Of a stretch of DNA of 64,000 nt, positions 4,873 to 61,031 are shown one piece after another. The translations under genes and the position numbers were made by a program. The stretch comes from a bacterium (GTDB lineage Bacteria; Planctomycetota; Planctomycetia; Planctomycetales; Planctomycetaceae). Under the pieces are notes generated by a model. The model did not search any database. It was given only the letters and a program-made list of their open reading frames with translations, and was not told where the DNA came from. Numbering within the stretch: the first letter of the stretch is position 1; the number at the start of each line of letters is the position of its first letter. The stretch is from positions 1-64,000 of the forward strand of contig WGMU01000100.1 in NCBI GenBank assembly GCA_016124895.1, read 5' to 3'.

Positions 4873-5036
4873 GTTGTAGGCCAGTTTCTCTGAAACTGGC
4901 ACCCACACAGGAATCGCCTGCTGAGGCGTACTTGTCATCAAGTTCAAATGGCTCGTCTGGGTTCTGCGTGGAAAGCGAGGCCGGGAATTTCAATTGCCTC
5001 TGCGCATGAGCAGGTTTTGGAAAAACCTGCCTACAG
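4873..5036. repeat. Second copy of the intra-operon spacer element. Left: TTGTAGGCCAGTTTCTCTGAAACTGG (4873-4898). Right: GCAGGTTTTGGAAAAACCTGCCTACAG (5010-5036).
   Basis: Same two terminal hairpin motifs as 2121-2294, in the same relative orientation and spacing (~110-120 bp between them). Sits between the nrtA-like stop (5048) and the permease start (4829). Confidence 0.6.
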
Positions 5037-5047
5037 TTAGCCTCCCC

Positions 5048-6553
<1,506 letters not shown>

Positions 6554-6900
6554 GGCAACAGACTGCTCCGAAATTATTCGATGGAAACTCCACTCAGGTC
6601 GTCCTGCGCTGACGGACCAGAGTGGTTCGGAGCGAAAAGCAAGCAATGTGCCGACGTGGTGATTCACGTAGCAAAACCGAAGTGCAGTCGGCAGACCACG
6701 TGCGTTTTCCCTGCTGGACTGTGGGCAACCACGTGGAACATCGGTCGCAGCGAATCTATCCGTGCTGCGAATGCAGGCAGCGAAGAGCCAATCGGCAGGC
6801 AGGCCGATTGAAAGCGACTCTTCGCGCAGAGAAACGCGGACCGGATCACGGAGCAGTCGCCGAAAATGGCTTACGTGTTCGGATTCGTAAGTCGACGTGA

Positions 6901-6984
6901 CGGAGGTCGGGAGTCTTTTTCAGTCAGACCACCTTCGCAATGGTTTCCGCTCGCTCCGAAAAAGACTCCCGACCCTTGCCGGCC
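6901..6984. repeat. MITE-like element, copy A: 15-bp perfect terminal inverted repeats GTCGGGAGTCTTTTT ... AAAAAGACTCCCGAC (6906-6920 / 6959-6973)
   Basis: Direct reading of the sequence. ~85% identical over ~84 bp to a second copy at 9763-9846. Lies in the intergenic region between the globin stop and the nrtA-like upstream region. Confidence 0.7.
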
Positions 6985-7026
6985 TTCGGTCTTCCCTCTT
7001 GCTGGTCTGTAAAAGAGGAACGCGAA

Positions 7027-7449
7027 TCAGGCCGCAGCGAGTTCTGCGGCTGCTTCTCTCATCGTCGTCGATAGAATCGTGTAGACAGTCACCCAGGCAT
7101 CTTTGACTTCAGGAGTAAACGCGTCTCCGAGCCCCTGCTCCAGCGTCCACAGCAAGGCTGCGCCGACGGTCTGGTACTGCGAGTCCTCGACGTTGTAGGC
7201 GACGTGTCGCTGTCCGAGGGCTTTGACCGCGGGCACAATTTCGCCCACATCGGTCAGGCCGTTGACGGCGAAGGCAAGCGTCTGCATCAGCTTCTTTTTC
7301 TGCTCGGCCATTTCGTCGGGAAAGAGCGCCCGCAGCGACGGATCGAGTTCAAACAGGCGGCCATAAAACAGATCGGCAGCCTGATCGGCGATGGGAGCAA
7401 CAGCGGCCCACGATGCCTGAACGAGAGAGACTTGCGTCGGAGTGACCAT
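7027..7449 (-). CDS. Single-domain bacterial haemoglobin (globin domain resembling the Vitreoscilla Hb / flavohaemoglobin N-terminal domain)
   Basis: 140 aa. LVQASWAAVAPIADQAADLFYGRLFELDPSLRALF matches the globin A-B-C helix signature (..W..V......FY.RLFE.DP.L..LF). The proximal His context QRHVAYNV is consistent with the F-helix. Confidence 0.75.
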   Translation of the reverse strand: MVTPTQVSLVQASWAAVAPIADQAADLFYGRLFELDPSLRALFPDEMAEQKKKLMQTLAFAVNGLTDVGEIVPAVKALGQRHVAYNVEDSQYQTVGAALLWTLEQGLGDAFTPEVKDAWVTVYTILSTTMREAAAELAAA

Positions 7450-7554
7450 GAGAGAGTTCCTGTGACTAAAGGTTCCGGTTGACGAGGTTGGGTTCGTTGT
7501 TGAGCCTGCCCCACGGCTTTCGGCGCTGAGCGGGCTGAGCTGCTCAGGATCCGG

Positions 7555-8118
7555 TTACGAGTCCGACGAGCGGATCAGTCGCAGGTCGCACTCACGAATG
7601 ACGTACTTCCATTCCTCCGTCCGCCGCAGTTCACCAACCAACTGGTCAAAGGCCGCGGCATCGGAGGGTGCAAATTCAAACCATGTCAGAAAATCGAACG
7701 CTCCGCCGAGATCCCGCGAATGGTGCAGCCGTCGCGCCACCGCCGGCAGATAGTTGAGTCCCGTCGCAATGTGTCGCGATTGGGTTTCCAGAATGGCGCG
7801 GCGTTCGTCCTGCGTAAGGCCCCACCACTCCGGCGATTTCGACAGAGCAATGAAGGCGGCACACGACGCTTCGGCTCGGCCGAGCGGCGGCTGCACAGCC
7901 ATCAGAGCTGCCTTTTCACTGCGTGTCACGTATCGCTCGTTGCTGACGACTCCTCTGAGGCACCACGTTACAGCGGCCAGCTCCGGCACAAACGGTTGAG
8001 CAGAGGACACGATGTCCAGACGGTCGACCGCCGGCAGTCCGTCGCCTGCAACGTCCGTCTTTGTCGTGACCTTCCACGGTCCGGCCGAGCCACCCACAAA
8101 CGTGAAGAATCGATCCAT
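7555..8118 (-). CDS. Short (lineage II, Nitrobacter NwCld-like) chlorite dismutase family haem protein
   Basis: 187 aa. Near-collinear motif agreement with short Clds: LRGVVSNERYVTRSEKAAL, WWGLTQDERRAILE, the proximal-His context SRHIATGLNYLPAVARRLHHSRDLGGAFDFLTWFEFAP, and TEEWKYVIRECDLRL. The Arg of AVARRLHH aligns with the distal catalytic Arg. No signal peptide. Confidence 0.75.
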   Translation of the reverse strand: MDRFFTFVGGSAGPWKVTTKTDVAGDGLPAVDRLDIVSSAQPFVPELAAVTWCLRGVVSNERYVTRSEKAALMAVQPPLGRAEASCAAFIALSKSPEWWGLTQDERRAILETQSRHIATGLNYLPAVARRLHHSRDLGGAFDFLTWFEFAPSDAAAFDQLVGELRRTEEWKYVIRECDLRLIRSSDS

Positions 8119-8219
8119 TGCAGGTTCCGTGTTCCGACATCGACCATTGATTCAGGTCGTTCAACCAGTCGAGTCGTCGTGAAAAACGCCTGTGTGATCA
8201 CGCGGCGTTGCCAGACATA

Positions 8220-8846
8220 TCAATCGAGCGGAATGCGGACGACGACGCCTCCCATGACGTCACCTGCCTTGAATTCGGGATAGCTCACTTCGCGGTTGGC
8301 GTGACCGTTATGGCAGGACCAGCAGGCTTCGGCGACGGCCTTGTCGGCATAGACCGCGGTGAAGTAATTCGCTCCGGCGATCTCTTCCGTCTTGTAGAAG
8401 TTCTCATCCGGATGCTCGGCGATATATTCGAGGCCTTCGATCTCGACGCCTTCCGCTTTGTTCTGTGGATTCAATGGCCACTTCGATTTGAGGGCGTACG
8501 TGAAACCGGCTTCGGGGTTGTCGTTGACCAGTTCGGCTCCCATGCGAAACATCTGAGCGGGCAACGGAATCGTGTGCTCTTCGTCCTGCCAGTATTCACT
8601 GGGTTTGACCGGGGCTTCCTGCTTCTTAAGACGTGTCACGACCTGTTTCGCGTAGACCGTTCGGTCGGCCATCATCACCGCGTGAACGGCGTCAGCGAAT
8701 TTCTGCGGCGTGATGCCGGTTGGCGGAGTCGTCTGAGCAACGGCGTCAGACGAGCTGCCGCCACCGCATCCGGTGGCTCCAGCCAGCATCACCGCGCTGC
8801 CACTCAGCAGAACGGCAGACAGGAATGTGCGCGTGTGTGGTTTCAT
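8220..8846 (-). CDS. Lipoprotein monohaem c-type cytochrome with the haem motif near the C-terminus, possibly cytochrome c'/P460-like
   Basis: Lipobox LAGATGC. A single CXXCH (CWSCH) lies at ~residue 175 of 208. The C-terminal placement of the motif resembles the cytochrome c' / c'-beta / P460 families; that assignment is inference only. Confidence 0.55.
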   Translation of the reverse strand: MKPHTRTFLSAVLLSGSAVMLAGATGCGGGSSSDAVAQTTPPTGITPQKFADAVHAVMMADRTVYAKQVVTRLKKQEAPVKPSEYWQDEEHTIPLPAQMFRMGAELVNDNPEAGFTYALKSKWPLNPQNKAEGVEIEGLEYIAEHPDENFYKTEEIAGANYFTAVYADKAVAEACWSCHNGHANREVSYPEFKAGDVMGGVVVRIPLD

Positions 8847-8922
8847 TTTTCAAAGCTCCAGATGGACAGGCGGGATGCCTGAAAACAAACAATCGAGCGC
8901 GTTGCGTGATGACGCTATCAAG

Positions 8923-10428
8923 TCAGTGCGGCTGAGCCGGTTTCGCGGCCGGGCCGGGCAGACCTTTGTGGGACCGCCCCTTGCGGGACTTCGACTCAAA
9001 CCAGCTCTGTGCCATGTCCAGACTCTCAACGTGAACGCTCGGCGGCGTTGAATAACAGTTGGCTGTGAGCTGTGGATCGGCGAGCGCATCCAGTGAGAAC
9101 TGCAGCCCGTGGCAGTTGAGGCAAACGCTGCGAACCATCTTCTCCTTCGGTCGCAGATTGGCGTTCTGGTTGTGCTCGACCGAGACGCGTCCGTCCTCGG
9201 TCCGAGGCAGATGACACGACGCGCAGGAAACGCCGCTGCCTGCGGGAGCTTTGCCCGAGACCTCAGCCAGCCATAGTCGGTAATGCGACGACCCCGCGTA
9301 TTCGCGGCTGTGCTGATCGTCGTGGCACTTCAGACACGCAGCGACTGCGGCCTCTGCCGTGTCATAACGATGAGCCGGATGGCAGGCGTTACAGGTCAGT
9401 GATTCGTGCGCGGCGCTGGACTTCATCGGCAGGCGAGCGTTCGACGGCTGCATGCGCGAGAGCCCGGCCGCGAGCCTCATGCCATGACGGCTCGCCAGAA
9501 AACCGTCAACTTCCGACGCGTGACACTGGCGACAGGTTTCATGACCGACGGCGTCAGACCACCTGGAAGCACCGCCGTCCCTCTTCGGCTGATGACAGCC
9601 CGAGCAGTTGACACCCGCGCGAGCGTGACTCGATTCAACCCAGGCCGTCAGAAGCGAATGGTCGCTCGCGTGCGAAGACAGCGCGTCGTGATCGTCGATC
9701 GTGAGTTGTATTGTGGATCGAGTGACGGTTTCAGTGGGACGATTTGAAGTCGTTGGGTCCGAGGAGGTCGGGAGTCTTTTGCGGTCAGACCGCGTTCCCA
9801 ATGGCTGGCGCTCACTCCGAAAAGGACTCCCGCCCCCTTGCCGCCCGACCGTCTGAGAACGACGCAGCCTCAGCAGAGGACTCTCCAGAATGTCCGGCTC
9901 GCCAGCGTGCTTCAGCAGGAAGTTCTCATACAGCGCTGTGTTGTCGTGGTAATTGTGACAGCCGGCGGTCGCGCACGAGTCGTACTGAAACGCCGCATGG
10001 CTCGGACGGTCCTCACCGATCGACTGGTGACAGTGAAAGCAGTAATCGGTCGGCAGCGTCAGTCCCATCGCGTGAGTGCGCTCGGGAACGTGCTCGCTGT
10101 GACAGGCGATGCAGCTTCGCGCGTCGATGTGCTGCAGCAGCTTTGCTTTCGTCGGATCACGGAACTTGCTTTCCGGATGGGTATCGCGAGCCTGCCTGAG
10201 TTCCGCAGCGTGGCAGTCGCGGCAGGATTCCTCGCGCACACTGCCGCCAGGTTCGTGACACGCCGCGCACTTCATTTCGATCTGATAATGCCCGTGCGTG
10301 GTCTCGCCCGGCAGAAACACCGTGGACAGCTCCGACGTCGAGTCACTCGTCGGCACAGCGCAGGCCAGCAGCCCGCCGAGCCCGACAGTCAGCAGCAACC
10401 AGATTGCCCACAGCGTGACGTTCGACAT
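8923..10428 (-). CDS. Membrane-anchored multihaem cytochrome c (~10 CXXCH motifs) carrying an in-frame 84-bp MITE-like insertion between an N-terminal NapC/NrfH-like block of 4-5 haems and a C-terminal 6-haem block
   Basis: N-terminal TM helix (WAIWLLLTVGLGGLLACAV). CXXCH motifs: CAACH, CRDCH, CIACH, CFHCH (plus an odd CATAGCH), then CSGCH, CRQCH, CNACH, CLKCH, CASCH, CLNCH. Residues ~194-222 (VGRQGGGSPFRSERQPLGTRSDRKRLPTS) are encoded by the repeat at 9763-9846. Reading frame confirmed by hand translation around 9889-9900. Confidence 0.65.
   Translation of the reverse strand: MSNVTLWAIWLLLTVGLGGLLACAVPTSDSTSELSTVFLPGETTHGHYQIEMKCAACHEPGGSVREESCRDCHAAELRQARDTHPESKFRDPTKAKLLQHIDARSCIACHSEHVPERTHAMGLTLPTDYCFHCHQSIGEDRPSHAAFQYDSCATAGCHNYHDNTALYENFLLKHAGEPDILESPLLRLRRSQTVGRQGGGSPFRSERQPLGTRSDRKRLPTSSDPTTSNRPTETVTRSTIQLTIDDHDALSSHASDHSLLTAWVESSHARAGVNCSGCHQPKRDGGASRWSDAVGHETCRQCHASEVDGFLASRHGMRLAAGLSRMQPSNARLPMKSSAAHESLTCNACHPAHRYDTAEAAVAACLKCHDDQHSREYAGSSHYRLWLAEVSGKAPAGSGVSCASCHLPRTEDGRVSVEHNQNANLRPKEKMVRSVCLNCHGLQFSLDALADPQLTANCYSTPPSVHVESLDMAQSWFESKSRKGRSHKGLPGPAAKPAQPH
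9763..9846. repeat. MITE-like element, copy B, lying inside the multihaem cytochrome reading frame: TIRs GTCGGGAGTCTTTT ... AAAAGGACTCCCG
   Basis: ~85% identity to 6901-6984, including the internal CAATGG core and flanking GGAGGTC / CCCTTGCCG. TIR positions 9768-9781 and 9820-9832 (one mismatch). Confidence 0.7.
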
Positions 10429-10585
10429 AACCGAATTCCGGACTCACGTACGGGAGAGACTCGTCCCAGGGTGGCTGGAGGAGGGAGGTACGAGCGAAAC
10501 TCCGGACTCTGTATTCCGTGCTTTCGCGTTCCGGGGCTTCCTTCGCAGGCTCAGCCAGTCCCAGCCACTAACTCCCGCCCGACAT

Positions 10586-10792
10586 TCAGATTGAAGGACT
10601 GATGATCGAGCAACTGCCTTCCACGGCTCGCAGCGTCAGAAACGCGAGGCGGGTCAGCGTCGGGCGGTCGTAACCTTCCAGACGTTGCCGGACATCCGGT
10701 CGCAGAAAGCCGGGCTCCGCGGAGAGGATGAAGTGAGCGAGTTCACGGTCGGTCATCTCGGCAATGCTGAAGGCAGAGGTGCTGGGGGCCAT
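10586..10792 (-). CDS. Small hypothetical ORF (68 aa) between the cytochrome gene and the flavoprotein gene; coding status uncertain
   Basis: Collinear with its neighbours and located in a 390-bp gap. No recognisable motif. Confidence 0.2.
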   Translation of the reverse strand: MAPSTSAFSIAEMTDRELAHFILSAEPGFLRPDVRQRLEGYDRPTLTRLAFLTLRAVEGSCSIISPSI

Positions 10793-10819
10793 GATTGGGG
10801 CTCCTGTCGGAAGTGACGG

Positions 10820-12871
10820 CTACAGGTAAAAGGCTGCGAAGATGTGAAACGCGACGAGGATCGGAAACGGCCAGAAACAGACGATGTGCAGCAGCGTCAG
10901 ACGTGGCCGCCAGAGGCGAATCTGTCGCTGCAGATCACCAGAAGCCCGGCCTTCCATGGCCGTGACGGCGCCAGTCAATGCACCGGCAACGCTGAGTCCC
11001 AGAAACGTCGTCATCAGCCAGAAGTTAAGATGACTGCCCAGACGCATTCCCGTATGAGCGATCAGCCCGGCGACCGTCAGCGTGCCCAGAATGCCGTGCC
11101 CGGCCCGCCACCAGCCGAAGTTCAGAAACTGCAACCGACTCCAGCGCTTCCGCAGTGAGAGCAGCAGCGCGGCGACAGACAGACCGATCAGCGAAAAGCC
11201 GGTGACCTGTTTCCAGAAGGCGTCGCGCCAGACGGCCTCAAACTGGTACCACGCCGATTGAACAGTGCTCGACCAGGCGATCGGCCCGAACAGCAGAATC
11301 ACCCCGACGAGCACCGCCGCAGACAACGACGCGGCCAGCAGCCAGCGCGAGCCCGGTGTTTCAACAACGGGTTCCGACGGAGCGCCGGCCAGCGCGGCCA
11401 GTTGCGGCCGACATGACCCGCAGACGGTCGACGCTCCGGTGGCTGCCGCAAGAGCATCGACCGACCGGCAGCCGCGTTCGCAGGCTGCGGTCAGCTCACC
11501 GCGAGAAACGCCAACGCAACTGCAGACGATCGCACCTGCCGGCCACGCCGCGACGTCCGCGTTTTCCGGCGGTGGCCATAACGAGCCCTCCGACTCGAAA
11601 CGCCGCCGCTGTTTGCCCCGGATACGCCGCTGTTTCGTGATTGCTTCCTGCACGCGCGGCAGTTCAGGAAACGGTCCGACGCCGACGGCACCGACGAGTT
11701 TCTGCCCGCGGAGGATGAGTTTGCGGTATGCCTCGTCATTCCGAATCGTCAGCGCCTGCGCGTCGCTGACGTCGAGATAGTCGCCGCACAGCGAGACATC
11801 GACACCCAGCAGTTTGAGCCGCGTCGAGACGTCACTGCCGGTAAACGCGGCGTGTTCCGCGTTCAGCGTCGCCGCGACGACGTCAGCCATGTGGTAACCC
11901 GGCGCCGCGAGACCGTAGATCGTGTCGCGATGCAGAGCGCACTCACCGATCGCGTAGATATTCGGGTCTGATGTTCGCAACTGGTCATCGACCACGATGC
12001 CGCCGCGCGGTCCGACGTCGAGACCAGCCTCTCGCGCCAGTTCGTCACGCGGTCGAATCCCCGCTGCAATGACGATCAGATCGACGTCGAGCGTTCCGTC
12101 TGGAAACTCAATGATCCGCCGCTCTCCGTCAGCGCGAATCGCCTGCGTCTTTTTCTGCAGATGGACGCGTACGCCGAGCGATTCGATCAGCTCGCGCAGC
12201 AGCGCCGCTCCGTCGTTGTCGAGTTGCCGCGGCATCAGCACGGACGCCATTTCAACAACGTGCGTTTCCAGTCCGAGGTCCAGCAGCGCGCGGGCAGCTT
12301 CGAGGCCCAGTAGTCCGCCGCCGATCACTGCGGCCGACTTCGCCGACTGACCGAACTGTTTGATCTGCTCGACATCATCAACGGTCCGGTACAGAAACAC
12401 GCCCGGCAGATCGCGCCCTTCAATCGGCGGCACAAACGGACTCGACCCCGTGGCCAGAACCAGCGTGTCGTACGGAACACAATCCAGCGATCGCGAGCGA
12501 ATCGTCTTCGCTTCGCGATCGATGGCCAGCACCGGATCGCCGGTGCGCAGTTCGATGCCGCGGTCCTCGTACCAGTCCCGGTCAGCAAATGTCAGCGATG
12601 CCGCAGTTTCCTCATCGAAGAACGAAGTCAACCGCACGCGGTCATATGCCGGTCGCGCTTCCTCACCAAACGCAATCAATCGATGCGAACGCTGCAGATG
12701 CCGGTCGCAGAGTTTCTCCAGCAGCCGAAAACCCACCGGCCCGTTGCCGACAACAACGATACCTGCCAGCGATAAAGAGGCATTCGAGGAGTTCGCTGTC
12801 GATGCACCGACCGCAGCCGATATCTGGGATTCGGCGACACTTTCCTGCGGGGAACTCAGTGCCACGACCAT
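10820..12871 (-). CDS. Fusion of a NirB/NasB-N-terminal-like FAD/NAD(P)-binding oxidoreductase and a BFD-like [2Fe-2S] domain to a C-terminal 5-6 TM His-containing membrane domain; it lacks a sirohaem nitrite-reductase domain. Start set at the internal ATG 12869-12871.
   Basis: Rossmann motif VVGNGPVGFRLLE, second dinucleotide site AAVIGGGLLGLEAA, YAIGEC, then a BFD-like Cys cluster (CSCVGVSRGELTAACERGC...CGSCRP). Hydrophobic helices with His follow (LIAHTGMRLGSH, LLHIVCFWPFPILVAFHIFAAFYL). Confidence 0.65.
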   Translation of the reverse strand: MVVALSSPQESVAESQISAAVGASTANSSNASLSLAGIVVVGNGPVGFRLLEKLCDRHLQRSHRLIAFGEEARPAYDRVRLTSFFDEETAASLTFADRDWYEDRGIELRTGDPVLAIDREAKTIRSRSLDCVPYDTLVLATGSSPFVPPIEGRDLPGVFLYRTVDDVEQIKQFGQSAKSAAVIGGGLLGLEAARALLDLGLETHVVEMASVLMPRQLDNDGAALLRELIESLGVRVHLQKKTQAIRADGERRIIEFPDGTLDVDLIVIAAGIRPRDELAREAGLDVGPRGGIVVDDQLRTSDPNIYAIGECALHRDTIYGLAAPGYHMADVVAATLNAEHAAFTGSDVSTRLKLLGVDVSLCGDYLDVSDAQALTIRNDEAYRKLILRGQKLVGAVGVGPFPELPRVQEAITKQRRIRGKQRRRFESEGSLWPPPENADVAAWPAGAIVCSCVGVSRGELTAACERGCRSVDALAAATGASTVCGSCRPQLAALAGAPSEPVVETPGSRWLLAASLSAAVLVGVILLFGPIAWSSTVQSAWYQFEAVWRDAFWKQVTGFSLIGLSVAALLLSLRKRWSRLQFLNFGWWRAGHGILGTLTVAGLIAHTGMRLGSHLNFWLMTTFLGLSVAGALTGAVTAMEGRASGDLQRQIRLWRPRLTLLHIVCFWPFPILVAFHIFAAFYL

Positions 12872-13197
12872 GAGCCTGAGGACTCTCACACTGCAAGTGA
12901 CAAATCGAGACTTGCTGCGTTCCGCCATCGAAAGCCGTTCTCGACCTCATCAGACGGACGCTGCGTCACTCTCAATTCGCAATGGCTATGCCGCAGGGAA
13001 AATCACATGCCCCTGAATCTCGCTTTCGTGGATCTCCACACACGAGCGTCGCATCACTTCTGCGGGCATCCACGCAATCTGGCCGCAGTTGGAGCCGCCG
13101 CGACAATCGCAAGCTGCCCGGCGAGCAGGCGACTGAGTTCAGAATCCGGGCACAACTGCGGCGTCAGAGTTACTCAAGCTCAGTCCCAGAGTCGGCG

Positions 13198-13686
13198 CTA
13201 CTCGGTCGGAGCCGCTGCAGCGTTTTCGCGAACGCGCTTCCAGTGCCAGATCGTCGGTTCGTTCTGATAGTTGCGATACTCGCCGCCCTGTAACAGACCG
13301 GGTATGTCCCAGAAGTTCTCTTCGTCGACTTTGTAAACGTACGACAGGCCCTGCTCGGGCGAACCGCCGACGCCGTAAAACGTCATCACGCGCACGCTGC
13401 CTGACTTACTGAGCTGGAACTCGACCGAGTGCTCGCGGACCAGCTTTCCGGTCGCGACGCTGTAGCGTCGCAGCGTCTCCTTGTTGCCTTCGATCGTCTT
13501 AACGCTGCGCGTGTTTGGCCGTCCCTTGCCTTCGTTGCCATGATGCAGCTCCCAGCTTCCCTGCAGCAGTTTGAGATCAGCGACCAGTTCCGGATCTGTT
13601 TTCGCGTCGTCCTGTGCGTCACTCATCAGCGAGAACGCGATCACCAGCAGAGCGGCCGACAGTGCGGCGAGGACGGACTTCTTCAT
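13198..13686 (-). CDS. Secreted hypothetical protein, TIGR03067-like planctomycete domain
   Basis: Signal peptide MKKSVLAALSAALLVIAFSLMSDA. The LQGSWEL motif is typical of TIGR03067-family proteins. Confidence 0.5.
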   Translation of the reverse strand: MKKSVLAALSAALLVIAFSLMSDAQDDAKTDPELVADLKLLQGSWELHHGNEGKGRPNTRSVKTIEGNKETLRRYSVATGKLVREHSVEFQLSKSGSVRVMTFYGVGGSPEQGLSYVYKVDEENFWDIPGLLQGGEYRNYQNEPTIWHWKRVRENAAAAPTE

Positions 13687-13713
13687 TTCAGATTCTCCTG
13701 TGTCGATTGGTGG

Positions 13714-16700
13714 TTACTGAGCTGGTTGTTTCGGCTGCCAGGGAATGGGACCGGGTTCGGCGCGGCTCGTAAATACGATGCGCTTCCCGTCGGGAGACCA
13801 GGCTCCGTGAAAATTCATCCGATCCATCGGCTGCGATTCGAGCAGCGACAGCTTCGACGCGACGAGGTCGTACACGAACAGCCGCTTGCCGCCGTGTGGC
13901 TTCGAGACTTTCGCCAGCAGCAGGCTGTTCCCGTCCGGATGCCAGGCCATTTCGGGATCGAACGTTTCTTCCGAAACGACGCGAAAAACTTTCGACGATC
14001 CGTCGACCGAAGTGATCGCGACTTCCGTCTGACCACTCTTGACGTTCCCTTTGAACGCGAACTGTCGACTGTCCGGTGACCAGGCCGCGTTCCAGTAAAT
14101 CTGCGAGTAGCGGGTCGCCTGCTCACCTTCCAGCAGCATTCGTTTTTCCTTCGTCTTCAGGTCGATGATCGTCACGTTGGCAGAGTAGCTGCCGTTGACG
14201 CGGCCGCGGGACTCATACGCGATCCATTTCCCGTTGGGAGACCACTGCGCTCCCCAGCCGTCCGGAGTGACGACCTCGCGGTTTTCGCCATTGAGGTCCA
14301 TCGTCGCCATGCCGTTGAGTGCCCAGGTGAACGCGATCCGTTTTCCATCGGGCGAAAAGGTCGGCATGATTCCGAGACCCAGATCCTTGAAGCCGGTTCC
14401 GTCTGCCCGGATCAGATACGAATGCGAGGTTTCGGCCCGGCCGGTGTAACCGTCAAACGCGATCCACTGGCCGTCGGGCGACCAGTCGGGCGACGCGTAC
14501 CCGGCGATCTCGGGATCCTCGAACGGCTGAGTGATCTGCTTGAGGCCGGAGCCATCGGCGTTTATCACGTTCAGCAGCAGCTTCGGCGGATTTCGTGGAT
14601 CGGGCAGGATCAGCAGTTGCTCTGCTCCGATTCGCAGCTTCTGCCAGGTGACTCGTGTTGTCCCGCCCTCGTTCGCGACGATTGTCAGCCGGGCTTGAGC
14701 CATCCGCTGTCTCATCGATTCAAAAGAGCGCGACGCGACGACGCGAAACTCCGACGAATCGTTTTCGGCAAACAGGACATAGGCCGTGTCGCCGCGCCGG
14801 GCGACGCGCATGCGCCCGGTCGCCGCTTCTGTCGAGATGTAGTCTGAGACACGACGGAACTCGCCAGCGTCGGCTGTCGACGTTCCGGCCTGAGGAGGCA
14901 GCGCCCAGTCAACGACCACGCGATAGCAGTCGGGCTTCTGCCAGCGCCGCTTGACCGCGACGGCGTAGCCTCCGTCAAAAGTGACCCACAGTTCGGCCCC
15001 GCAGACCTGCTTCTCGGCGAGTTGCAGATCGGCGAAGCCGACAGTCACGTCAAAGTCGCCGTGCATCCGCAGCCAGTTGTTGAGGCTCGAATGCCGATAC
15101 TCGCCATCTGACTTCTGGAAATGCTCGAAGCCCTGCGGTGTCAGCGCCGTCTGGCTCATCTCGAACCCGCCACTGAATTCAAAGTACTCGTCCGGCAATT
15201 CCTCCGTGCGGAAGTCGTGCTCGAAAACCGGATCAAGCGCGGCAAGCTGAGCGTCAAACATTGTCGCCGCAGGATCGGCAAGCTGCTGGTCGGCGATGTC
15301 CGGCAGCGTCTTCGGCCAGTCGCCGCGCAGCACGACGTTGCGGACTCGAACTTCCGACTGCTCGGCAAAGTGGAACAGACCGAAATGCCGCGAGTTCGTC
15401 GCGTCGAGCGGCGTTTCCAGAATCGCCTCACCGTTCAGCTCGAGTCGAGCGGTCTGACCCGTCAACGCGAGACGCAGTGAATTCCACTCGTCGGCCCTCA
15501 GTGGCAGCGGCTGTCGGCCCGGATCGCCAGCGTCGAATGGAGTCGAGTTGTCCGGCGAGAGAGACGAGCGATCGTAGCGGCTGTCGGTCAGCCAGTGCCG
15601 CCGGACACCGTCAGGATCAAGCAGAAACGCCAGTCGTCCCAGCGCCGGATGAACGACCGACTCACCGGGCGAGTAGTAAAACTCGTATTCGATCGAACCG
15701 TCTTCGATCAGCGGCCGGTGATAGCGGAGCAGGCGTTCGAGTGAGTAGCCCGGAATGCCACGACGAACTCCGACAATCTGCGCTCCGTCGCGCGAGTCAA
15801 CAGGCGTCTGCCAGTCGACACTGTCAGTGCCGAAGTCTTCTCCGTAATACGGGTACCAGCCGGCGAGGCCGCCGGGGCTGGAAAGTTCAACCGCGTTCGG
15901 GATCTCCGGCCGACCGCTGATCCGCAGATCGCGAACCGTGCCCGGAGCACGTGACCAGCTCCGGATGGCGACCCACGGATCGAAGTCCGGCGTGACCTTG
16001 CGGCTGTGGACGAGCCGGCCATTCACCCAGACGCGGTTGACACCATCTTTGATGTCAGTCCGAAACCGGATCCACTGATCGACCTGGTGCAGCGGCGGGG
16101 CGATCGGCTGCGTTGTGCTTCCCGTTCGGAAGAGACCGGTAATCAGTTGCATCGGATTGCCCGGTCCGAACAACTCGCCGGCAATCAGCAACTGCGCCGT
16201 GCTGTAACCGAGCACGTCGGCTTCGATCGAGTATTCGCCACGGAGCGGGCTGTGATAAAACAGGTAGTCCTCGGTGTGACCGCGAAGGTGTCGACACTCG
16301 ACGCCGTCCCACTGCCAGGACGCAACGGACAGACCGCGTCCGCAACTGCTCGCCAGTTCGCGACTGACCGGAATCCAGTTCCTCAATGGTTCAACCGCCC
16401 GTCTCTGATGGCCGCTCGGTCCACCGGTGCGGAGTGCTGCGTACGCGTCGTATTCGCGAGCCAGCGACGAGAGATACACGAACCAGTCATCCTCGCGCGC
16501 CGGCACCCTCTTCTGGACCCGCTGTGTCATCAGGTATCCAAGCAGATCGCTGAGCGGGGCGAAGTCCGGGAACCGCTTCAGGCAGCGAGCCGCGACGAGC
16601 GTCTCGGGCCACTGGTCCGCCAGCGACTGCGGCTCGCTCTTCGAAACCGCCGCGAACAGAGCATCAAATGCTGACCCAGCCGCCGCAGCGTCGCCCAGCT

Positions 16701-17199
16701 CCAGACTCAGCAGCAACAGCAACGCCTCCCGCGCCCGCTGTTGAAAACTGTCGGGCGATTCCTCAACCGCCGCGACCCGATCGCGCAACTCCGCGATGCG
16801 CCCGGTCGCAGCAGCCAGGTCGAGCAGATCAAACATCGGCGAAACCAGTGCTCCGCCGAGTCCGTCATGTTCTGTCGCAAAATCCGAAACAGGGGCCGGC
16901 CGCGTCTGACTGAACTCGCCGCTGAGCCGAAATCCAGAATGCCGAACGTCTGGCAGCACCCACTCGGCAAGCAACTCGAACCGCTGCTCAGCATCGAGAG
17001 TCGCCGCCTGGCGACGGACAGCGGAGACGTTTTCCGCAAGAACGTGCGCACCGAAAATCCCGCCAGCGACCTCAGCGTCAAGCGGCGCGGCAGCCGGCAG
17101 CTCAATCGGCAGTAACAGAAACGAGGTCGCACCGCACAAGAGCACGCTCTGCAATCGCCAGCGTCGGTGGGTCACACGGTCGCCCGTCCGTTTCTTCAT
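13714..17199 (-). CDS. Large secreted protein (1161 aa) with internal repeated domains (DUF1583-like) and a C-terminal TolB-like WD40/PD40 beta-propeller
   Basis: The C-terminal ~330 aa carry repeated SPDG..IAF / WSPDG..I PD40 motifs (SPDWSPDGQWIAFDG, FSPDGKRIAFT, WSPNGKWIAYES, WSPDSRQFAFKG, WHPDGNSLLL, WSPDGKRIVFTS). N-terminal hydrophobic signal. Confidence 0.6.
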   Translation of the reverse strand: MKKRTGDRVTHRRWRLQSVLLCGATSFLLLPIELPAAAPLDAEVAGGIFGAHVLAENVSAVRRQAATLDAEQRFELLAEWVLPDVRHSGFRLSGEFSQTRPAPVSDFATEHDGLGGALVSPMFDLLDLAAATGRIAELRDRVAAVEESPDSFQQRAREALLLLLSLELGDAAAAGSAFDALFAAVSKSEPQSLADQWPETLVAARCLKRFPDFAPLSDLLGYLMTQRVQKRVPAREDDWFVYLSSLAREYDAYAALRTGGPSGHQRRAVEPLRNWIPVSRELASSCGRGLSVASWQWDGVECRHLRGHTEDYLFYHSPLRGEYSIEADVLGYSTAQLLIAGELFGPGNPMQLITGLFRTGSTTQPIAPPLHQVDQWIRFRTDIKDGVNRVWVNGRLVHSRKVTPDFDPWVAIRSWSRAPGTVRDLRISGRPEIPNAVELSSPGGLAGWYPYYGEDFGTDSVDWQTPVDSRDGAQIVGVRRGIPGYSLERLLRYHRPLIEDGSIEYEFYYSPGESVVHPALGRLAFLLDPDGVRRHWLTDSRYDRSSLSPDNSTPFDAGDPGRQPLPLRADEWNSLRLALTGQTARLELNGEAILETPLDATNSRHFGLFHFAEQSEVRVRNVVLRGDWPKTLPDIADQQLADPAATMFDAQLAALDPVFEHDFRTEELPDEYFEFSGGFEMSQTALTPQGFEHFQKSDGEYRHSSLNNWLRMHGDFDVTVGFADLQLAEKQVCGAELWVTFDGGYAVAVKRRWQKPDCYRVVVDWALPPQAGTSTADAGEFRRVSDYISTEAATGRMRVARRGDTAYVLFAENDSSEFRVVASRSFESMRQRMAQARLTIVANEGGTTRVTWQKLRIGAEQLLILPDPRNPPKLLLNVINADGSGLKQITQPFEDPEIAGYASPDWSPDGQWIAFDGYTGRAETSHSYLIRADGTGFKDLGLGIMPTFSPDGKRIAFTWALNGMATMDLNGENREVVTPDGWGAQWSPNGKWIAYESRGRVNGSYSANVTIIDLKTKEKRMLLEGEQATRYSQIYWNAAWSPDSRQFAFKGNVKSGQTEVAITSVDGSSKVFRVVSEETFDPEMAWHPDGNSLLLAKVSKPHGGKRLFVYDLVASKLSLLESQPMDRMNFHGAWSPDGKRIVFTSRAEPGPIPWQPKQPAQ

Positions 17200-17433
17200 C
17201 GGCCAGATGCTCCCAGGTTTTCAGTCAGACTCGCAGGGACGTCATCCCGCGCGCGAGGCAATGCTCTTGTCACTGAACCAGAAGCCGGCAGGCCTGCAGC
17301 TTGACCGACATTGACAGGAAAAACCAGTGGCAGCGAGGGCCTCCGCACCTCTGGTCTCGGACACCCAAACAGCACCCGACCTGCCGGAGCCTTCGCATAT
17401 GGTCCCGTTCGAGGTCTTGTTTCGGACCGGCTT

Positions 17434-19515
17434 CTATGCTGACGCTTCGTGATTGGCACGGAAGCCGGAAATCGCATCGGGGCGGAACTCTGGTTTCGGA
17501 GGCAGGCAGAGAGCGGCTTCAACGATCAGGGCGAGGGCCATCGTGATCAGAAACGCACGCCAGACTTCGCTCGCGAGCGATTCGCCGCTGTCGAGCTGGT
17601 CGGTGACGACGCGGTAATCAAGACCGCTCAGCAGGCCCGAGATGGCTTCGTCGGACAGCACGTCGAGCCGGTCCTCTGAGGCGGGACGATTCAGCGCGAT
17701 CAAGCGTTCGCCGTCCTGGTAAACACCCGCGTGGAAGCGGCGTTCTGTTGAGACAATTGATTCCGTGTCGTCGGAGTAAGGTTCGGCCAGACTCAGATCA
17801 GGAACGTCGAGACTTCCGGCTGTGTACTGCTGCGCCGGGGCGAGCGCCCGGGCTCCGATTTCCAGAGCACGCTGCACAGCGATGTAAAAGACGATGCCGT
17901 CGCGCGCGAGGCTCGAATACGACGCCTGCGGCAGTGTCCCGCAGAACCAGACGGACGAACTGGCCGAAAGCGTTGAACTTTCGTTGCGCGACGTTTCGGA
18001 ATCCTCAGCCGCATCCGGACGAACCCGCACCAGAAGCGGCTGACCATCGGCAAACCGCGCCAGAACAGTGCCCGGCGCAGTGATCGCACAGCGGCGGTAA
18101 ATGTTGAGATCGCCGACCGGCAACGCGGCGCCGCTCTGCGAATTTGCCAGCAGATCCTCATCCTGCCGCCAGCTCTCGACACGAAACGGATCGTCATTCA
18201 CCGACTGCGACCACTCACCCCAGCGGGCACCGAACAAGGACTGCTGCGATGGCTCGTCGGGTGGCAGAAACAGAATCGGCCGGCCTTCCGCCACGTAGTT
18301 CGACAGCCGCTGTGCGATTGCTCCGTCCGGCAGACTGGCGTGCCAGACGGCGAGACTCGGCCGCGACCAGTCGATTTCTTCAACGCGGTCGGTCGAGAAG
18401 ACTTCAGCGGTGTGTTCGAGATTCGGATTCGGATCCGTCGGCGCGGTTGCGGCGATTCGGAATGGTTCAGCAACCGCGGCGATGTCTGAGACAATCACCG
18501 TGTGCCGCGCTGCTTCGCTGGCAAAGCAGAAACAACTGAAATTGTCTCTCGGGTTGGCATCAGCCGGCAGTTCGACACGGCCCCAGCCGGTCGCTGAATT
18601 GTCGTCGATCGGCAGCACGTGGCCCTGCAGGACGAGTTCGTCGTCGGTCATCTCGACCTCGTGAACTGACCTCGCTCCATTGATCAGAAACGTCAGTGGG
18701 ACGTTTGCCGAAACGGCACTCTCGGTCTGCCGCAGCAGCCGGATATCGAGCACCAGCTCCGCGCCGCCCGGTACGTTGCGGCGCTTGACGGACTGAACCT
18801 CAACGGAAACGTTTTCGCGCGGCACGTCCGGGTACGCGAGCAGTTGGAACCGCACGCCTTCGAGCTGCGTCAACGATTCGCGGAGACTCGCCCACCGCCC
18901 GCTGTCGGCTTCCCAGTCCGTCCGCCGCAGGTCGGAGCAGACCCAGATGTCGGTACGTCCGACCTGATTGACGGTCAGGTAATCCAGTGCTGCCTGAAAC
19001 ATCCCAGTAAGGCTCGACGCCGAATCAGTCGTCCGCGCTTCCGGGAGGTCCCGTAACGCCGCCGCCGATTCGATCTCGATCGGAGCGAGCCCGGTACTCT
19101 CAATCAGAACGATTCGCGACGCACTTCCGAGTTGTTCGAGCAGCCCGGCGAGCTTGCTGACTCCGGATGAGAGCTTCGACTCGCCCGTCTGCAGGTTCTG
19201 CTGCGCCATGCTAGGCGACCGGTCAAGCAGAATGAGCGTCGTCTCCGGCGTCCCGCCCGCCGCGAGTCCGATCCAGCCACTCGCCAGCGGACGCGCCGCT
19301 GCCAGCAGCAGAGCCGCGATTGCCAGCATCCGCATCGCCATGATGAGAATCTGCTTGAGCCGCGCCATACCCCGCGTCATCCGCTGCGCGTCGAGCAGAA
19401 ACATCATCGCCGCCCACTTCACCGTCCGATGCCGGTGCCGATGGATCAGGTGAATGATGATCGGCAACGCAACCAGCGGCAGTCCGATCAGCAGAAGTGG
19501 CTGGAGGAAGGTCAT
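17434..19515 (-). CDS. BatA-like protein with an N-terminal double-transmembrane anchor (TIGR02226-type) followed by a vWA-like region
   Basis: MTFLQPLLLIGLPLVALPIIIHLIHRHRHR is the characteristic N-terminal double-TM motif of the aerotolerance BatA family. 693 aa with a C-terminal TM helix. Confidence 0.6.
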   Translation of the reverse strand: MTFLQPLLLIGLPLVALPIIIHLIHRHRHRTVKWAAMMFLLDAQRMTRGMARLKQILIMAMRMLAIAALLLAAARPLASGWIGLAAGGTPETTLILLDRSPSMAQQNLQTGESKLSSGVSKLAGLLEQLGSASRIVLIESTGLAPIEIESAAALRDLPEARTTDSASSLTGMFQAALDYLTVNQVGRTDIWVCSDLRRTDWEADSGRWASLRESLTQLEGVRFQLLAYPDVPRENVSVEVQSVKRRNVPGGAELVLDIRLLRQTESAVSANVPLTFLINGARSVHEVEMTDDELVLQGHVLPIDDNSATGWGRVELPADANPRDNFSCFCFASEAARHTVIVSDIAAVAEPFRIAATAPTDPNPNLEHTAEVFSTDRVEEIDWSRPSLAVWHASLPDGAIAQRLSNYVAEGRPILFLPPDEPSQQSLFGARWGEWSQSVNDDPFRVESWRQDEDLLANSQSGAALPVGDLNIYRRCAITAPGTVLARFADGQPLLVRVRPDAAEDSETSRNESSTLSASSSVWFCGTLPQASYSSLARDGIVFYIAVQRALEIGARALAPAQQYTAGSLDVPDLSLAEPYSDDTESIVSTERRFHAGVYQDGERLIALNRPASEDRLDVLSDEAISGLLSGLDYRVVTDQLDSGESLASEVWRAFLITMALALIVEAALCLPPKPEFRPDAISGFRANHEASA

Positions 19516-19610
19516 GGGCGACTGGGTAGCGAAGAGACTCTGGGCGTCAGCGTCTGGAGAAGAGGATCATCAGAAAGCGGCGAAGCCGCGACAGAACGTA
19601 GCTGCGGGCG

Positions 19611-19630
19611 TCAGCCCGCAGAACCGGAAA
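19611..19630. repeat. REP-like palindrome CTGCGGGC-GTCA-GCCCGCAG flanking the RAYT gene (left copy)
   Basis: 8-bp perfect stem. An inverted partner lies at 20178-20197 with a reverse-complement loop (TGAC) and ~28 bp of extended similarity. Confidence 0.7.
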
Positions 19631-19664
19631 AAAACGACAAAAAGCCGCGAAGCGGCGGCAGCAG

Positions 19665-20129
19665 TCAGCCGTGATGCTCACCTTCAAACAGATACTCGAG
19701 TCGAAACTCAACGTTATGCCGCTTCAGAAACTCAACGTACTCCTCTTGACAACTTTTCGTCCGGTGGTGCTCTGCCTGGTCGCGAATGTATCGCTGCACG
19801 GCATCGATCTGCGAGTAACTGACGGTGAATGCTGAGTAGCCCTTCTGCCACTCGAAGGGAAACCGAGTTCCTGGCAGTTCACTGATCCATTTCGATGAGT
19901 TGGCTTTCAGATCGCGGATGACGTCCGCGACCGCCAGCGTCGGCAAGAGTTTCGTCAGGATATGGACGTGATCGCGGGTCCCGCCGATTTCGATTGATTG
20001 ACCCTTTCTGCCGCGAATCGTTCCGCCGAGGTATTCGTAAAGACGAGCCTGCAAGTCGGCGCTGATGGCTGGGCGTCTGTATTTCGTTGAAAAGACGATG
20101 TGGTAATTCAGTTGTGTGAAACTTCCCAT
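19665..20129 (-). mobile_element. REP-associated tyrosine transposase (RAYT; IS200/IS605 TnpA-like, Y1 HUH transposase). Start set at the internal ATG 20127-20129.
   Basis: LNYHIVFSTKYRRP...GTRDHVHIL...KGYSAFTVS gives the HUH (HVH) motif and conserved Tyr typical of IS200-like and RAYT proteins. Flanked by inverted REP palindromes. Confidence 0.8.
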
Positions 20130-20177
20130 GAGGTCCTCTGTCGCCGCTTCGCGGCTCAAGTCATGGTTAGTAAAGAA

Positions 20178-20197
20178 CTGCGGGCTGACGCCCGCAG
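20178..20197. repeat. REP-like palindrome CTGCGGGC-TGAC-GCCCGCAG (right copy, inverted relative to 19611-19630)
   Basis: Direct reading of the sequence. Confidence 0.7.
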
Positions 20198-20242
20198 CTA
20201 AGTTCTGCCGCGGCTTCGCCGCTGGCAACGAGCCGCTGAACT

Positions 20243-21358
20243 TCAATCGGAGTTCACAAAACAGATCAGCGTATTCTCCATCCAGTCGAACGCCTCGTTC
20301 AGCGTCAGGCCAGAGTCGGTCAGCAGGCCGTGGCAGTAGCGGGTGACGAACTTCGGCTGCCAGTCTTCACGCAGGTAGTCGACGCGGCTCTTGCCGGCGA
20401 CGCGGGCCAGCATGCACGCTCCAAGATGGCGCACGCAGCGACGTTCGTAATCGGACGTCTCGCTGCCGGTCGGTTCGAACCAGTGAGGGGCTGGCTTTCT
20501 TGCGAGATAAGAGAAGTAGAGACGATTAAACTCGCGGGTCATCGCAATGACCTGCATGGCCAGACAAGCTCCACGTTGCTCGTTTGATTTGCTCGCGTGG
20601 CAAACAACCTTCAGCAGCAGGTGGCTGAGGAAGAAGCCGACGCCGAACGCCGGGGCGCCGAAGTGGCCGGTTTCAAAGTCGACCAGTACCGGGCCGTGCG
20701 ACGCGAGCAGGATGTTTTTCGGGCTGAAGTCTGCGAGAACAATGCTGTCGCTGCGGGTCAGCGAGGATTCGATGATCGCTTCGAGCGCCGGGCGGCAGTG
20801 CTCGTCATGCTCGGCGACGTAGCGGTAGAACGGGTCAAGTCGCAGTTCGTCAAAGACGGTACGGTCGCCGAGTTGTTCCGCCAGTACCTCGTTACCAGTC
20901 GAACCACGGTGAATCGCCGCGAGGGAGCCCGCAAGGGTTTTCGCGACGTTCTGATCGATCTCCCCCGCAAGCAGTTCCGCTTTCCAGACGCGATGACTCG
21001 CCTCGATCGCCTCCATCGCGAACAGATAGTTCTCGCGATCCTCAAACAGAACGACCGGTACGACGCCGTCGGGCAGCAGACGTTTCAAGGCGTGCAGCAT
21101 GTCGACTTCGCGCCAGATGCGTTCCAACTGGCTGAACCAGTCGATCTGTGTGCGCAGCTTCTCGCGCGACTGCTTGATCACGAAGCTCCGCACCGCGGGC
21201 TGAACATCGACGCGGATGACGATGTTGGAAACGCCCCACGCCAGTTCGGTCGCCGTTGCCGAATTCAGATCGGCAGCTGTCAGGCCGACCTGCGGCAGAA
21301 ACTCGCGGCCCGGTCCGCGGAGATAGTCCAGCGTCGTTGAGGCGTCGATCTCGATCAT
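20243..21358 (-). CDS. Phosphotransferase-family protein (APH / choline-kinase / MtnK-like small-molecule kinase fold)
   Basis: LADFSPKNILL (Brenner-like HxDxxxxN variant) and LVDFETGHFG (DFE/DxG) motifs. 371 aa. Confidence 0.5.
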   Translation of the reverse strand: MIEIDASTTLDYLRGPGREFLPQVGLTAADLNSATATELAWGVSNIVIRVDVQPAVRSFVIKQSREKLRTQIDWFSQLERIWREVDMLHALKRLLPDGVVPVVLFEDRENYLFAMEAIEASHRVWKAELLAGEIDQNVAKTLAGSLAAIHRGSTGNEVLAEQLGDRTVFDELRLDPFYRYVAEHDEHCRPALEAIIESSLTRSDSIVLADFSPKNILLASHGPVLVDFETGHFGAPAFGVGFFLSHLLLKVVCHASKSNEQRGACLAMQVIAMTREFNRLYFSYLARKPAPHWFEPTGSETSDYERRCVRHLGACMLARVAGKSRVDYLREDWQPKFVTRYCHGLLTDSGLTLNEAFDWMENTLICFVNSD

Positions 21359-38933: not shown

Positions 38934-39087
38934 CTCAGCGTCACAGGAGTGTGCCACTGGCTTTGCCTGTGCTCCAAAGAATTCGAGCACTGGCGGAGCC
39001 AGTGGCACACGGATGCACGGCAAAACGTCGTCGCCTCGAACTGCAGGACAATCGGGACAAGACGAAGACTGACCACACGAGGACACA

Positions 39088-42833: not shown

Positions 42834-43205
42834 TGTTGTTCCTTCGTGATCAGACAGTTGTGGAGTTATTTCGTCGATCGCTGAGACATCGGCATCGCAA
42901 AATAATGTTAAGCGTTCGTCGATCAGATTCGCTACGACACGACACAGCGCATCGGCTGGCCCCACTCAAACTGACGTTGGGTGGCCGGGGCTGGACTGAG
43001 CCTGCAAAGGAAGCCCCGGAACCTGAAAGCACGGAATACAGAGACCGGGACTTCGCTCGTACCTCGCTCCAGCCCCGGCCACCCTGCGCAACAGATTCAT
43101 GATCACCGGCAATAGCGGCCACGACAGCCCTGCTCGAACTGGCGGGGCAGACAGAAATCGTCAAAGCTGCCGCATGATTAATGACTCTTTCCGGGAGGGG
43201 CTCCA

Positions 43206-60825: not shown

Positions 60826-61031
60826 GTCCTCTTGAAAGCAGGAACTGCCGAATGTCAGCCGGTCATTGCAGCGCAAAGGCTCGAAGACGCAAAGGTTCGC
60901 CGAAGCGTCAGCGTCGAACAGGATTTGTCTTCTCTCACTTTACGCGACTTCGCGTCTCAGCGCCTTTGCGCTGAGGTCTGCCTGAATCTGCCTTGACGGC
61001 AATATCCATCACCATTGAGTGAGACAGAAAA

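Follow-up and report, generated by a model that had tools for sequence, protein, structure and literature searches.

How did an 84-bp palindromic repeat come to lie in frame within the gene for a multihaem cytochrome c, between the two haem-binding blocks of its product? The question is raised by a 64,000-nucleotide stretch of DNA from a member of the Planctomycetaceae (contig WGMU01000100.1 of assembly GCA_016124895.1, positions 1 to 64,000 of the forward strand), referred to here as the window. A preliminary description of the sequence had offered two answers. Either a mobile element resembling a miniature inverted-repeat transposable element (MITE) had landed in a linker, or the repeat lay in a former intergenic gap and had fused two ancestral genes. 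Our analysis favours the first. With a rough probability of 0.85, a palindromic repeat inserted into the linker of a cytochrome that was already encoded by a single gene and has been carried there as a tolerated passenger.

An in-frame palindromic repeat in a cytochrome gene

The open reading frame (ORF) was indeed uninterrupted across the repeat, as first described, and encodes 501 amino acids (aa). The borders of the genic copy were set by the consensus of the repeat family. The features of the gene, and of the second copy of the repeat in the window, are the following:

8923..10428, minus strand: multihaem cytochrome c gene, uninterrupted ORF of 501 aa
10357..10422, minus strand: N-terminal hydrophobic helix, aa 3-24 (AlphaFold helix and Kyte-Doolittle profile)
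9955..10269, minus strand: N-terminal haem block, aa 54-158, with four CXXCH motifs and the invariant CATAGCH-N-x-HDN motif
9762..9845: genic copy of the palindromic element, 84 bp, 28 codons, aa 195-222 (GRQGGGSPFRSERQPLGTRSDRKRLPTS), arms partly decayed
9762..9784: left arm of the genic copy, AGGAGGTCGGGAGTCTTTTGCGG
9817..9839: right arm of the genic copy, CCGAAAAGGACTCCCGCCCCCTT, with uncompensated changes relative to the left arm
9709..9761, minus strand: remaining native linker, about aa 223-240, Ser/Thr/Pro-rich, low-confidence model, length variable among homologues
9109..9606, minus strand: C-terminal block, aa 275-440, with six CXXCH motifs and distant homology to the C-terminal part of NrfA/octahaem nitrite reductase
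6901..6984: intergenic copy of the element, in the spacer that separates the nrtA-like gene (start at 6667) from the globin gene (stop at 7027)

The insert lies between the N-terminal haem block and the C-terminal hexahaem block (motifs at aa 54-158 and aa 275-440 respectively), in agreement with the preliminary description. It encodes the Gly/Arg/Ser-rich stretch reported there, although this stretch is 28 aa long and not 29. Its identification as a copy of the inverted-repeat element at 6901-6984 was confirmed. Positions 6902-6984 and 9763-9845 are 82% identical over 83 nt and constitute the longest direct-repeat family in the window. The sequence GGTCGGGAGTCTTTT is present on both strands at 6905/6960, and at 9766/9821 with 0 and 2 mismatches respectively. 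The arms of the intergenic copy are intact, with one compensatory pair change (TTTTTCAG...CTGAAAAA). Both copies have inverted arms and fold into a long hairpin (-40 to -49 kcal/mol; z -2.3 to -3.3 compared to shuffled sequences). The uncompensated changes in the arms of the genic copy are as expected for a decaying copy under drift. We also considered the two copies as intrinsic terminators and rejected this, since a terminator scan of both gave only weak, non-significant matches, which used the T-run of an arm.

Next, we compared the linker with those of orthologous proteins. Instead of being the same in all of them, it was 28 aa shorter in the closest relatives, which favours insertion. When 16 sequences were aligned, the stretch from 'SQ' to 'QL(T/A)ID' spanned 48 aa in the window protein vs. 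20 aa in its homologues P0002 (79% identity) and P0006 (84% identity). The excess is exactly 28 aa, that is, 84 bp, the length of the element. A search of a large protein collection returned more than 2,700 homologues of the cytochrome, and among the best 120 the peptide signature encoded by the arms was present in the window protein only. The intergenic element was likewise missing from the orthologous globin-nrtA spacer of a related genome (L001), in which the adjoining ~230 nt upstream of nrtA align well. The orthologous sites of both copies being empty, the two window copies are interpreted as lineage-specific gains. In the AlphaFold2 model (65 sequences), confidence (pLDDT) was below 50 for aa 197-236, covering the element and the remaining native linker, and approximately 90 in the C-terminal domain. 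The earlier suggestion of a mobile, MITE-like element that landed in frame in a linker and was tolerated is thus borne out by orthologues without the element, by the exact difference of 84 bp, by a variable and low-confidence linker, and by a repeat superfamily that is found in frame elsewhere.

These data fit a simple course of events. Once this lineage had separated from its closest sampled relatives, a small palindromic non-coding repeat would have inserted into the linker between the domains of an 11-haem cytochrome that was already encoded by a single gene. Because the element is 28 codons long and has no stop in the frame used, the gene would have remained open, and the protein would have gained a Gly/Arg/Ser/Pro-rich stretch of 28 aa.

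The other answer, that the element sat in a former intergenic gap and fused a NapC/NrfH-type (quinol-dehydrogenase-type) gene to a downstream gene for a periplasmic hexahaem protein, was tempting, as the insert separates two haem blocks and the second copy is intergenic. However, it was refuted by the orthologue comparison, and we give it practically no credence. Nearly all of the best 120 homologues are full-length single proteins (about 445-470 aa, covering ~95% of the query), which carry both blocks without the element; those that are named belong to the Planctomycetota (e.g. Blastopirellula, Rhodopirellula and Calycomorphotria). Two alignments of the cytochrome (16 and 65 sequences) had the same layout: a hydrophobic helix, four CXXCH motifs plus CX4CH-N-x-HDN, a linker of variable length, and six CXXCH motifs. 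All 77 columns that are invariant in the 65-sequence alignment are kept in the window protein. The gene neighbourhood is shared by four genomes (the window, L001, L129 and L130), each with one cytochrome gene in it. In addition, the N-terminal block had no NapC/NirT/NrfH match in Pfam or NCBIfam, and no NrfH chain was found in a profile search of the PDB; its resemblance to NapC/NrfH is an analogy of layout only (an anchor and four CXXCH motifs).

No separate signal peptide precedes the C-terminal block. The maximum of the Kyte-Doolittle profile (19 residues) was 2.1 at aa 7, in the N-terminal helix, compared to 0.78 anywhere beyond aa 223, and the helix at aa 3-24 is predicted to be the only membrane anchor or export signal of the cytochrome. 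The attachment of haem to c-type cytochromes takes place after export. As there is no hydrophobic segment beyond aa 223, the C-terminal six-haem block would mature only within the whole protein. The hidden internal start suggested downstream of the element was not found either: from aa 150 to aa 300, the only in-frame candidate (ATG, GTG or TTG) is a TTG that belongs to the element. We conclude that the cytochrome, with its insert, is predicted to be one polypeptide. This removes a tempting fusion story, leaving neither a gene fusion nor a new domain architecture.

The repeat superfamily and its in-frame copies

Metagenome contigs were scanned for the core of the arm in inverted orientation, with 30-55 nt between the two occurrences. 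At least 120 contigs matched this pattern. They revealed 23-nt inverted arms (ANGGGGTCGGGAGTCTTTTTCGG ... CCGAAAAAGACTCCCGACCCCNT) around variable loops, giving elements of about 62-84 bp. The arm consensus is A-N-GGGGTCGGGAGTCTTTTTCGG, mirrored on the opposite side, with an A at position -5 on both sides in 80 of 87 copies. Conservation of the arms also extended to bases that the scan pattern had left free. The hairpin extended inwards by a mean of 5.15 further perfect pairs, compared to 1.65 in a control in which halves of different copies were re-paired, and there were 105 distinct inner sequences. The arms almost always occur as close inverted pairs. No distant pairs bracketing a gene were found in ~830 kb, in contigs that had been retrieved by the close-pair pattern. 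Directly flanking the inverted repeats of 87 copies, there was no direct repeat longer than 1-3 nt that could represent a target-site duplication (none at all in 62 of the 87), and no conserved 'foot' beyond the A/T at position -5. Twenty of 118 copies were flanked by an A-run and, on the opposite side, a T-run, as in bidirectional terminators; the two window copies lacked such flanks.

All of the hosts that could be placed were Planctomycetota. No Rfam family corresponds to the element (only sub-threshold matches to miRNA-like hairpins were obtained), and a full-text search found no published paper with the arm sequence. The collection of plasmids contained no match and viral contigs only two. 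In species-representative genomes, a pattern of arm plus GTCAGACC, which was too specific, returned a single chance match without an inverted repeat (L005). There was no copy in ~83 kb from four other Planctomycete genomes (L001 and L128-L130), and no phylum-diagnostic Pfam domain on the long ORFs of eight element-bearing contigs. When the window copies were compared to all fetched contigs by blastn, the intergenic copy matched through its arms only and the genic copy had no match. As the loop of the window copies is thus unlike that of any other sampled copy, they probably form a lineage-specific subfamily.

The arms are free of stop codons in all six frames, which would explain how the element can repeatedly become part of proteins. 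The peptides they encode are G-V-G-S-L-F / K-K-T-P-D-P, G-S-G-V-F-F / R-K-R-L-P-T-P and G-R-E-S-F-S / E-K-D-S-R-P. Ten of 124 sampled copies (about 8%) lay in an open frame with coding-type GC1/GC2/GC3 on both flanks. Beyond the window cytochrome, at least seven in-frame cases were supported by Pfam domains that span or flank the insert, and the hosts include the following:

Xanthine-dehydrogenase-like protein: MoCoBD_1 domain split in two by the element
Eco57I-type N6-methylase (contig L051, 3-1556, minus strand): two copies between motif I and NPPY
RecD2 helicase: Pfam support
RluA-type pseudouridine synthase: Pfam support
FG-GAP protein: Pfam support
BNR/Ycf48-like protein: Pfam support

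With two separate in-frame copies, the methylase indicates that a single gene can accumulate several inserts. The closest homologue of the xanthine-dehydrogenase-like protein (86% identity) is without the 22-aa insert, and the 33-34 alignment columns at the RecD2 insert are empty in ten homologues; both inserts occupy a variable loop. Together with the two window copies, these provide four empty orthologous sites. The named homologues of the first host are from Lacipirellulaceae and Bythopirellula, and those of the second from Phycisphaerales and Sedimentisphaerales.

Most copies are intergenic, every detectable intragenic copy is in frame, and the three checked against homologues sit in variable loops or linkers. 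Bacterial genomes consist mostly of coding sequence. An intragenic share of only about 8%, all of it in frame where detectable, fits random or semi-random insertion followed by the loss of disruptive copies. In the cytochrome, the insert is most likely a tolerated passenger rather than a functional module. A flexible linker of already variable length would have accommodated it, and no particular peptide seems to be selected, since the arms are decaying and the in-frame copies in other genes use all three frames.

Three further explanations of the insert were weighed. Co-option is the least improbable of them, and we consider it unlikely: the 28-aa Gly/Arg-rich tether or the mRNA hairpin would now be functional, for example in spacing the domains, in pausing translation, or in the processing or stability of the mRNA. 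On the sense (mRNA) strand the hairpin is stable (about -47 kcal/mol), the frame is still open despite the divergence of the arms, and the insertion site is an interdomain tether. However, 119 of the best 120 homologues do without the element, the in-frame copies of other genes use all three frames and different loops and therefore share no common peptide, and the arm changes are uncompensated, which fits drift. An assembly artefact, in which a dispersed repeat was misthreaded into the gene, deserves a thought because the contig was assembled from a metagenome and repeats are classic sites of misassembly. We judge it very improbable, given that the flanks are the two halves of one orthologous gene, ordered and in frame, and that an identity of only 82% to the other local copy rules out a collapsed duplicate. 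Moreover, the Logan assembly L004 of run SRR10063241 is identical to window 6170-20428 except for one mismatch in 14,259 nt, although it was probably made from the same reads. Finally, the variable, low-complexity linker of the family might suggest native sequence that resembles a hairpin by chance, or an ancestral stretch lost in the relatives. Neither is credible to any appreciable degree: a match of 83 nt at 82% identity, which takes in both of the 23-nt arms that define a superfamily on at least 120 contigs, is far beyond chance, and the absence of the element from the 119 other best homologues (including those with 79-84% identity) would demand many independent, precise losses.

The insertion into the cytochrome linker, its position and its recurrence in other genes are shown by the comparisons made here. 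Several points nevertheless weigh against the account given here. The window holds two copies only, and the Logan assembly that agrees with it probably shares its reads. Neither a target-site duplication nor a clean empty-site junction was definable at the window copies, because the host linker is too divergent among orthologues. We infer mobility from presence or absence between relatives and from copy number, and the neutrality of the insert is likewise deduced. We found neither an autonomous partner nor a transposase bordered by the arms. A single Y1 transposase gene is present in the window (19665-20132, IS200/IS605 family, 75.9 bits), with a different repeat on either side of it, and phmmer detected no homologue of it among all ORFs of the ~830 kb of element-bearing contigs. 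The taxonomy of the hosts was checked for three element-bearing hosts only.

Spread of the element and its relation to known repeats

The absence of a target-site duplication, the maintained hairpin and the deep conservation of the arms suggest, by analogy, a mechanism that depends on a hairpin or on single-stranded DNA, of the REPIN or HuH-Y1 type, over cut-and-paste of the DDE type used by classical insertion sequences.

In-frame palindromic repeats are already known as Rickettsia palindromic elements (RPE), intragenic REPs and intragenic ERIC (PMC10969869, PMC3733652). RPE are about 100-150 bp long, a conserved peptide has been reported for their families, and nearly half of the copies are intragenic in some families (PMC10969869, PMC3733652). 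Like RPE, the element is a short palindromic non-coding repeat that occurs both between genes and in frame in unrelated genes, adding a peptide without breaking the protein. By contrast, it is shorter (about 62-84 bp vs. about 100-150 bp), its hosts are free-living Planctomycetota instead of obligate intracellular Rickettsia, its arms are used in all three frames instead of encoding a conserved peptide, and ~8% of its sampled copies are intragenic, compared to nearly half in some RPE families. The likeness is one of behaviour. The element is not known to be related to RPE in sequence, and we claim no membership, as host phylum and length differ.

REP/REPIN sequences resemble the element in having two conserved inverted units and a less conserved spacer that form one long hairpin (PMC3116915, PMC3733652, PMC6006769). 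Both are mostly extragenic and sometimes in genes, show no target-site duplication and have arms conserved across deep lineages. However, the arm consensus ANGGGGTCGGGAGTCTTTTTCGG has neither a GTAG nor a CGTC tag and no internal palindrome, no RAYT flanked by element arms was found, and the Y1 gene of the window is flanked by a GTAG-tagged Acido-Lenti-1 hairpin.

Bacterial MITEs (Correia/NEMIS, ERIC, RUP, Nezha and SPRITE; PMC10969869) are also small, non-coding and dispersed, with terminal inverted repeats and a stable RNA hairpin, and in-frame intragenic copies are known for ERIC and other MITEs. The A-run/T-run flanks of 20 of the 118 copies are shared with SPRITE-like terminator-type elements. 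The element has several features of a MITE: 84 bp, 23-nt inverted arms, no ORF of its own, dispersed copies, and presence or absence between relatives. It differs in the lack of a target-site duplication, and its loops are far more variable than those of typical MITE families. No parent insertion sequence with matching inverted repeats was identified among the contigs retrieved by the close-pair pattern. Overall, the element behaves like the in-frame repeats of the RPE, REP and ERIC kinds but, on the features tested, is not a member of RPE, REP or classical MITEs.

As a tentative hypothesis, the hairpin with ANGGGGTCGGGAGTCTTTTTCGG arms could represent an undescribed, phylum-wide repeat system of free-living Planctomycetota, RPE-like and a regular source of loop and linker inserts. 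Its arms may be kept by a vertically inherited enzyme that recognises the hairpin, REPIN-like without the GTAG tag, possibly with a link to the class 3 Y1 HuH proteins (PMC6006769). Class 3 Y1 proteins are found mainly in Planctomycetes and Acidobacteria, with high-copy atypical hairpins (PMC6006769).

While the single insertion is modestly interesting, the superfamily is the more valuable lead. In-frame palindromic repeats are best documented in Rickettsia, and here they occur also in large free-living genomes, the placed hosts being Planctomycetota. The superfamily can serve as an annotation marker that explains low-complexity inserts, split Pfam domains and over-long proteins, and it is a candidate system in which to find the enzyme that recognises the arms.

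The host cytochrome, its neighbourhood and other repeats

The cytochrome has ten CXXCH motifs (aa 54, 69, 106, 130, 275, 299, 346, 365, 402 and 436). The eleventh haem motif is of the CX4CH type (CATAGCH at aa 152). Pfam and NCBIfam gave only generic multihaem matches (Cytochrom_c3_2 and Paired_CXXCH_1; DmsE decahaem was below the cutoff). In databases, the family is named 'cytochrome c3 family' or, doubtfully, 'NrfA'. The latter name is weakly founded and not established, because the protein has no CXXCK active-site motif of NrfA, the match to Pfam Cytochrom_C552 is local and below the cutoff (19.3 vs. 24.1 bits), the PDB matches are confined to the C-terminal haem region of NrfA/octahaem nitrite reductases (profile and single-sequence searches), and the AlphaFold model had no significant solved fold in the PDB (Foldseek, best E = 0.39). 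In the profile search, the C-terminal block matched octahaem nitrite reductase with E = 5e-10 and NrfA with E = 6e-9. At profile level the six-haem block thus resembles the equivalent region of both enzyme types (E about 1e-9 to 1e-10). The neighbourhood of the gene relates to nitrogen oxides or nitrate (NirB-like flavoprotein, globin, Tll0287-like protein and NrtA-type transport). What sets the cytochrome apart from these enzymes is its 11 haem motifs, its membrane anchor at the N-terminus, its invariant CX4CH and the absence of CXXCK. From its sequence, it appears to be an ordinary member of a conserved, uncharacterised 11-haem family of Planctomycetota.

The gene belongs to a functionally uncharacterised four-gene module (window 5048-12928, minus strand), also present in L001, L129 and L130. 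Its products are a NirB-like flavoprotein (FAD/2Fe-2S, with a membrane domain at its C-terminus), the cytochrome with its 11 haem motifs, a Tll0287-like protein and a globin. Genes for nitrate/nitrite transport of the nrtA type come next in both the window and L001. The window has, in addition, a chlorite-dismutase-like gene (7555-8118) and a conserved ORF of 68 aa (10586-10792). The cytochrome of the closest relative (P0006; contig L002, 1307-2254) is called at only 315 aa and stops shortly past the second C-terminal haem motif. This points to a frameshift, a pseudogene or an error in the assembly of that genome.

The window contains several other repeats. Two matches to Acido-Lenti-1 (Rfam RF01687) at 19576-19621 (minus strand) and 20178-20223 (plus strand), with 49.5 and 47.3 bits respectively, are inverted, 96% complementary, and flank the Y1 transposase ORF (19665-20132, minus strand). 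The motif YIRDQAEHH of this ORF fits the 'Y---Q--HH' signature of TnpA-Y1 subclass 1.2 (PMC6006769). Each match consists of GTAG followed by a palindrome with an 8-bp stem, a REP-like layout. The 'sRNA' motif Acido-Lenti-1 may therefore represent the terminal hairpin, or REP, of a unit built around a Y1 transposase.

A second family, with repeats of ~105 nt, is present at 10468-10572 and 42985-43085 (reverse complement), with 83-89% identity and outer inverted ends (GGGTGGCTGG...CCAGCCAC). The first copy is situated in the 5' region of the cytochrome gene. The second lies upstream of an unrelated gene, an esterase/SMP-30 fusion, and both copies have the same orientation to the gene that follows. 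This repeat has no Rfam match and is absent from the contig of the closest relative (L002). A 32-nt repeat at 2279-2310 and 5011-5042 (91% identical, palindrome CAGGTTTTGGAAAAACCTG), whose second copy closely follows the nrtA-like gene on its 3' side, could represent a terminator or one more small dispersed hairpin. Strong local hairpins were also found at 5-83 (31-nt arms, 97% complementarity), 38949-39010 (29-nt arms, 86%) and 60869-60973 (26-nt arms, 85%). In the first of these, GGTAGCC adjoins the stem, and this hairpin may be another REP-like unit.

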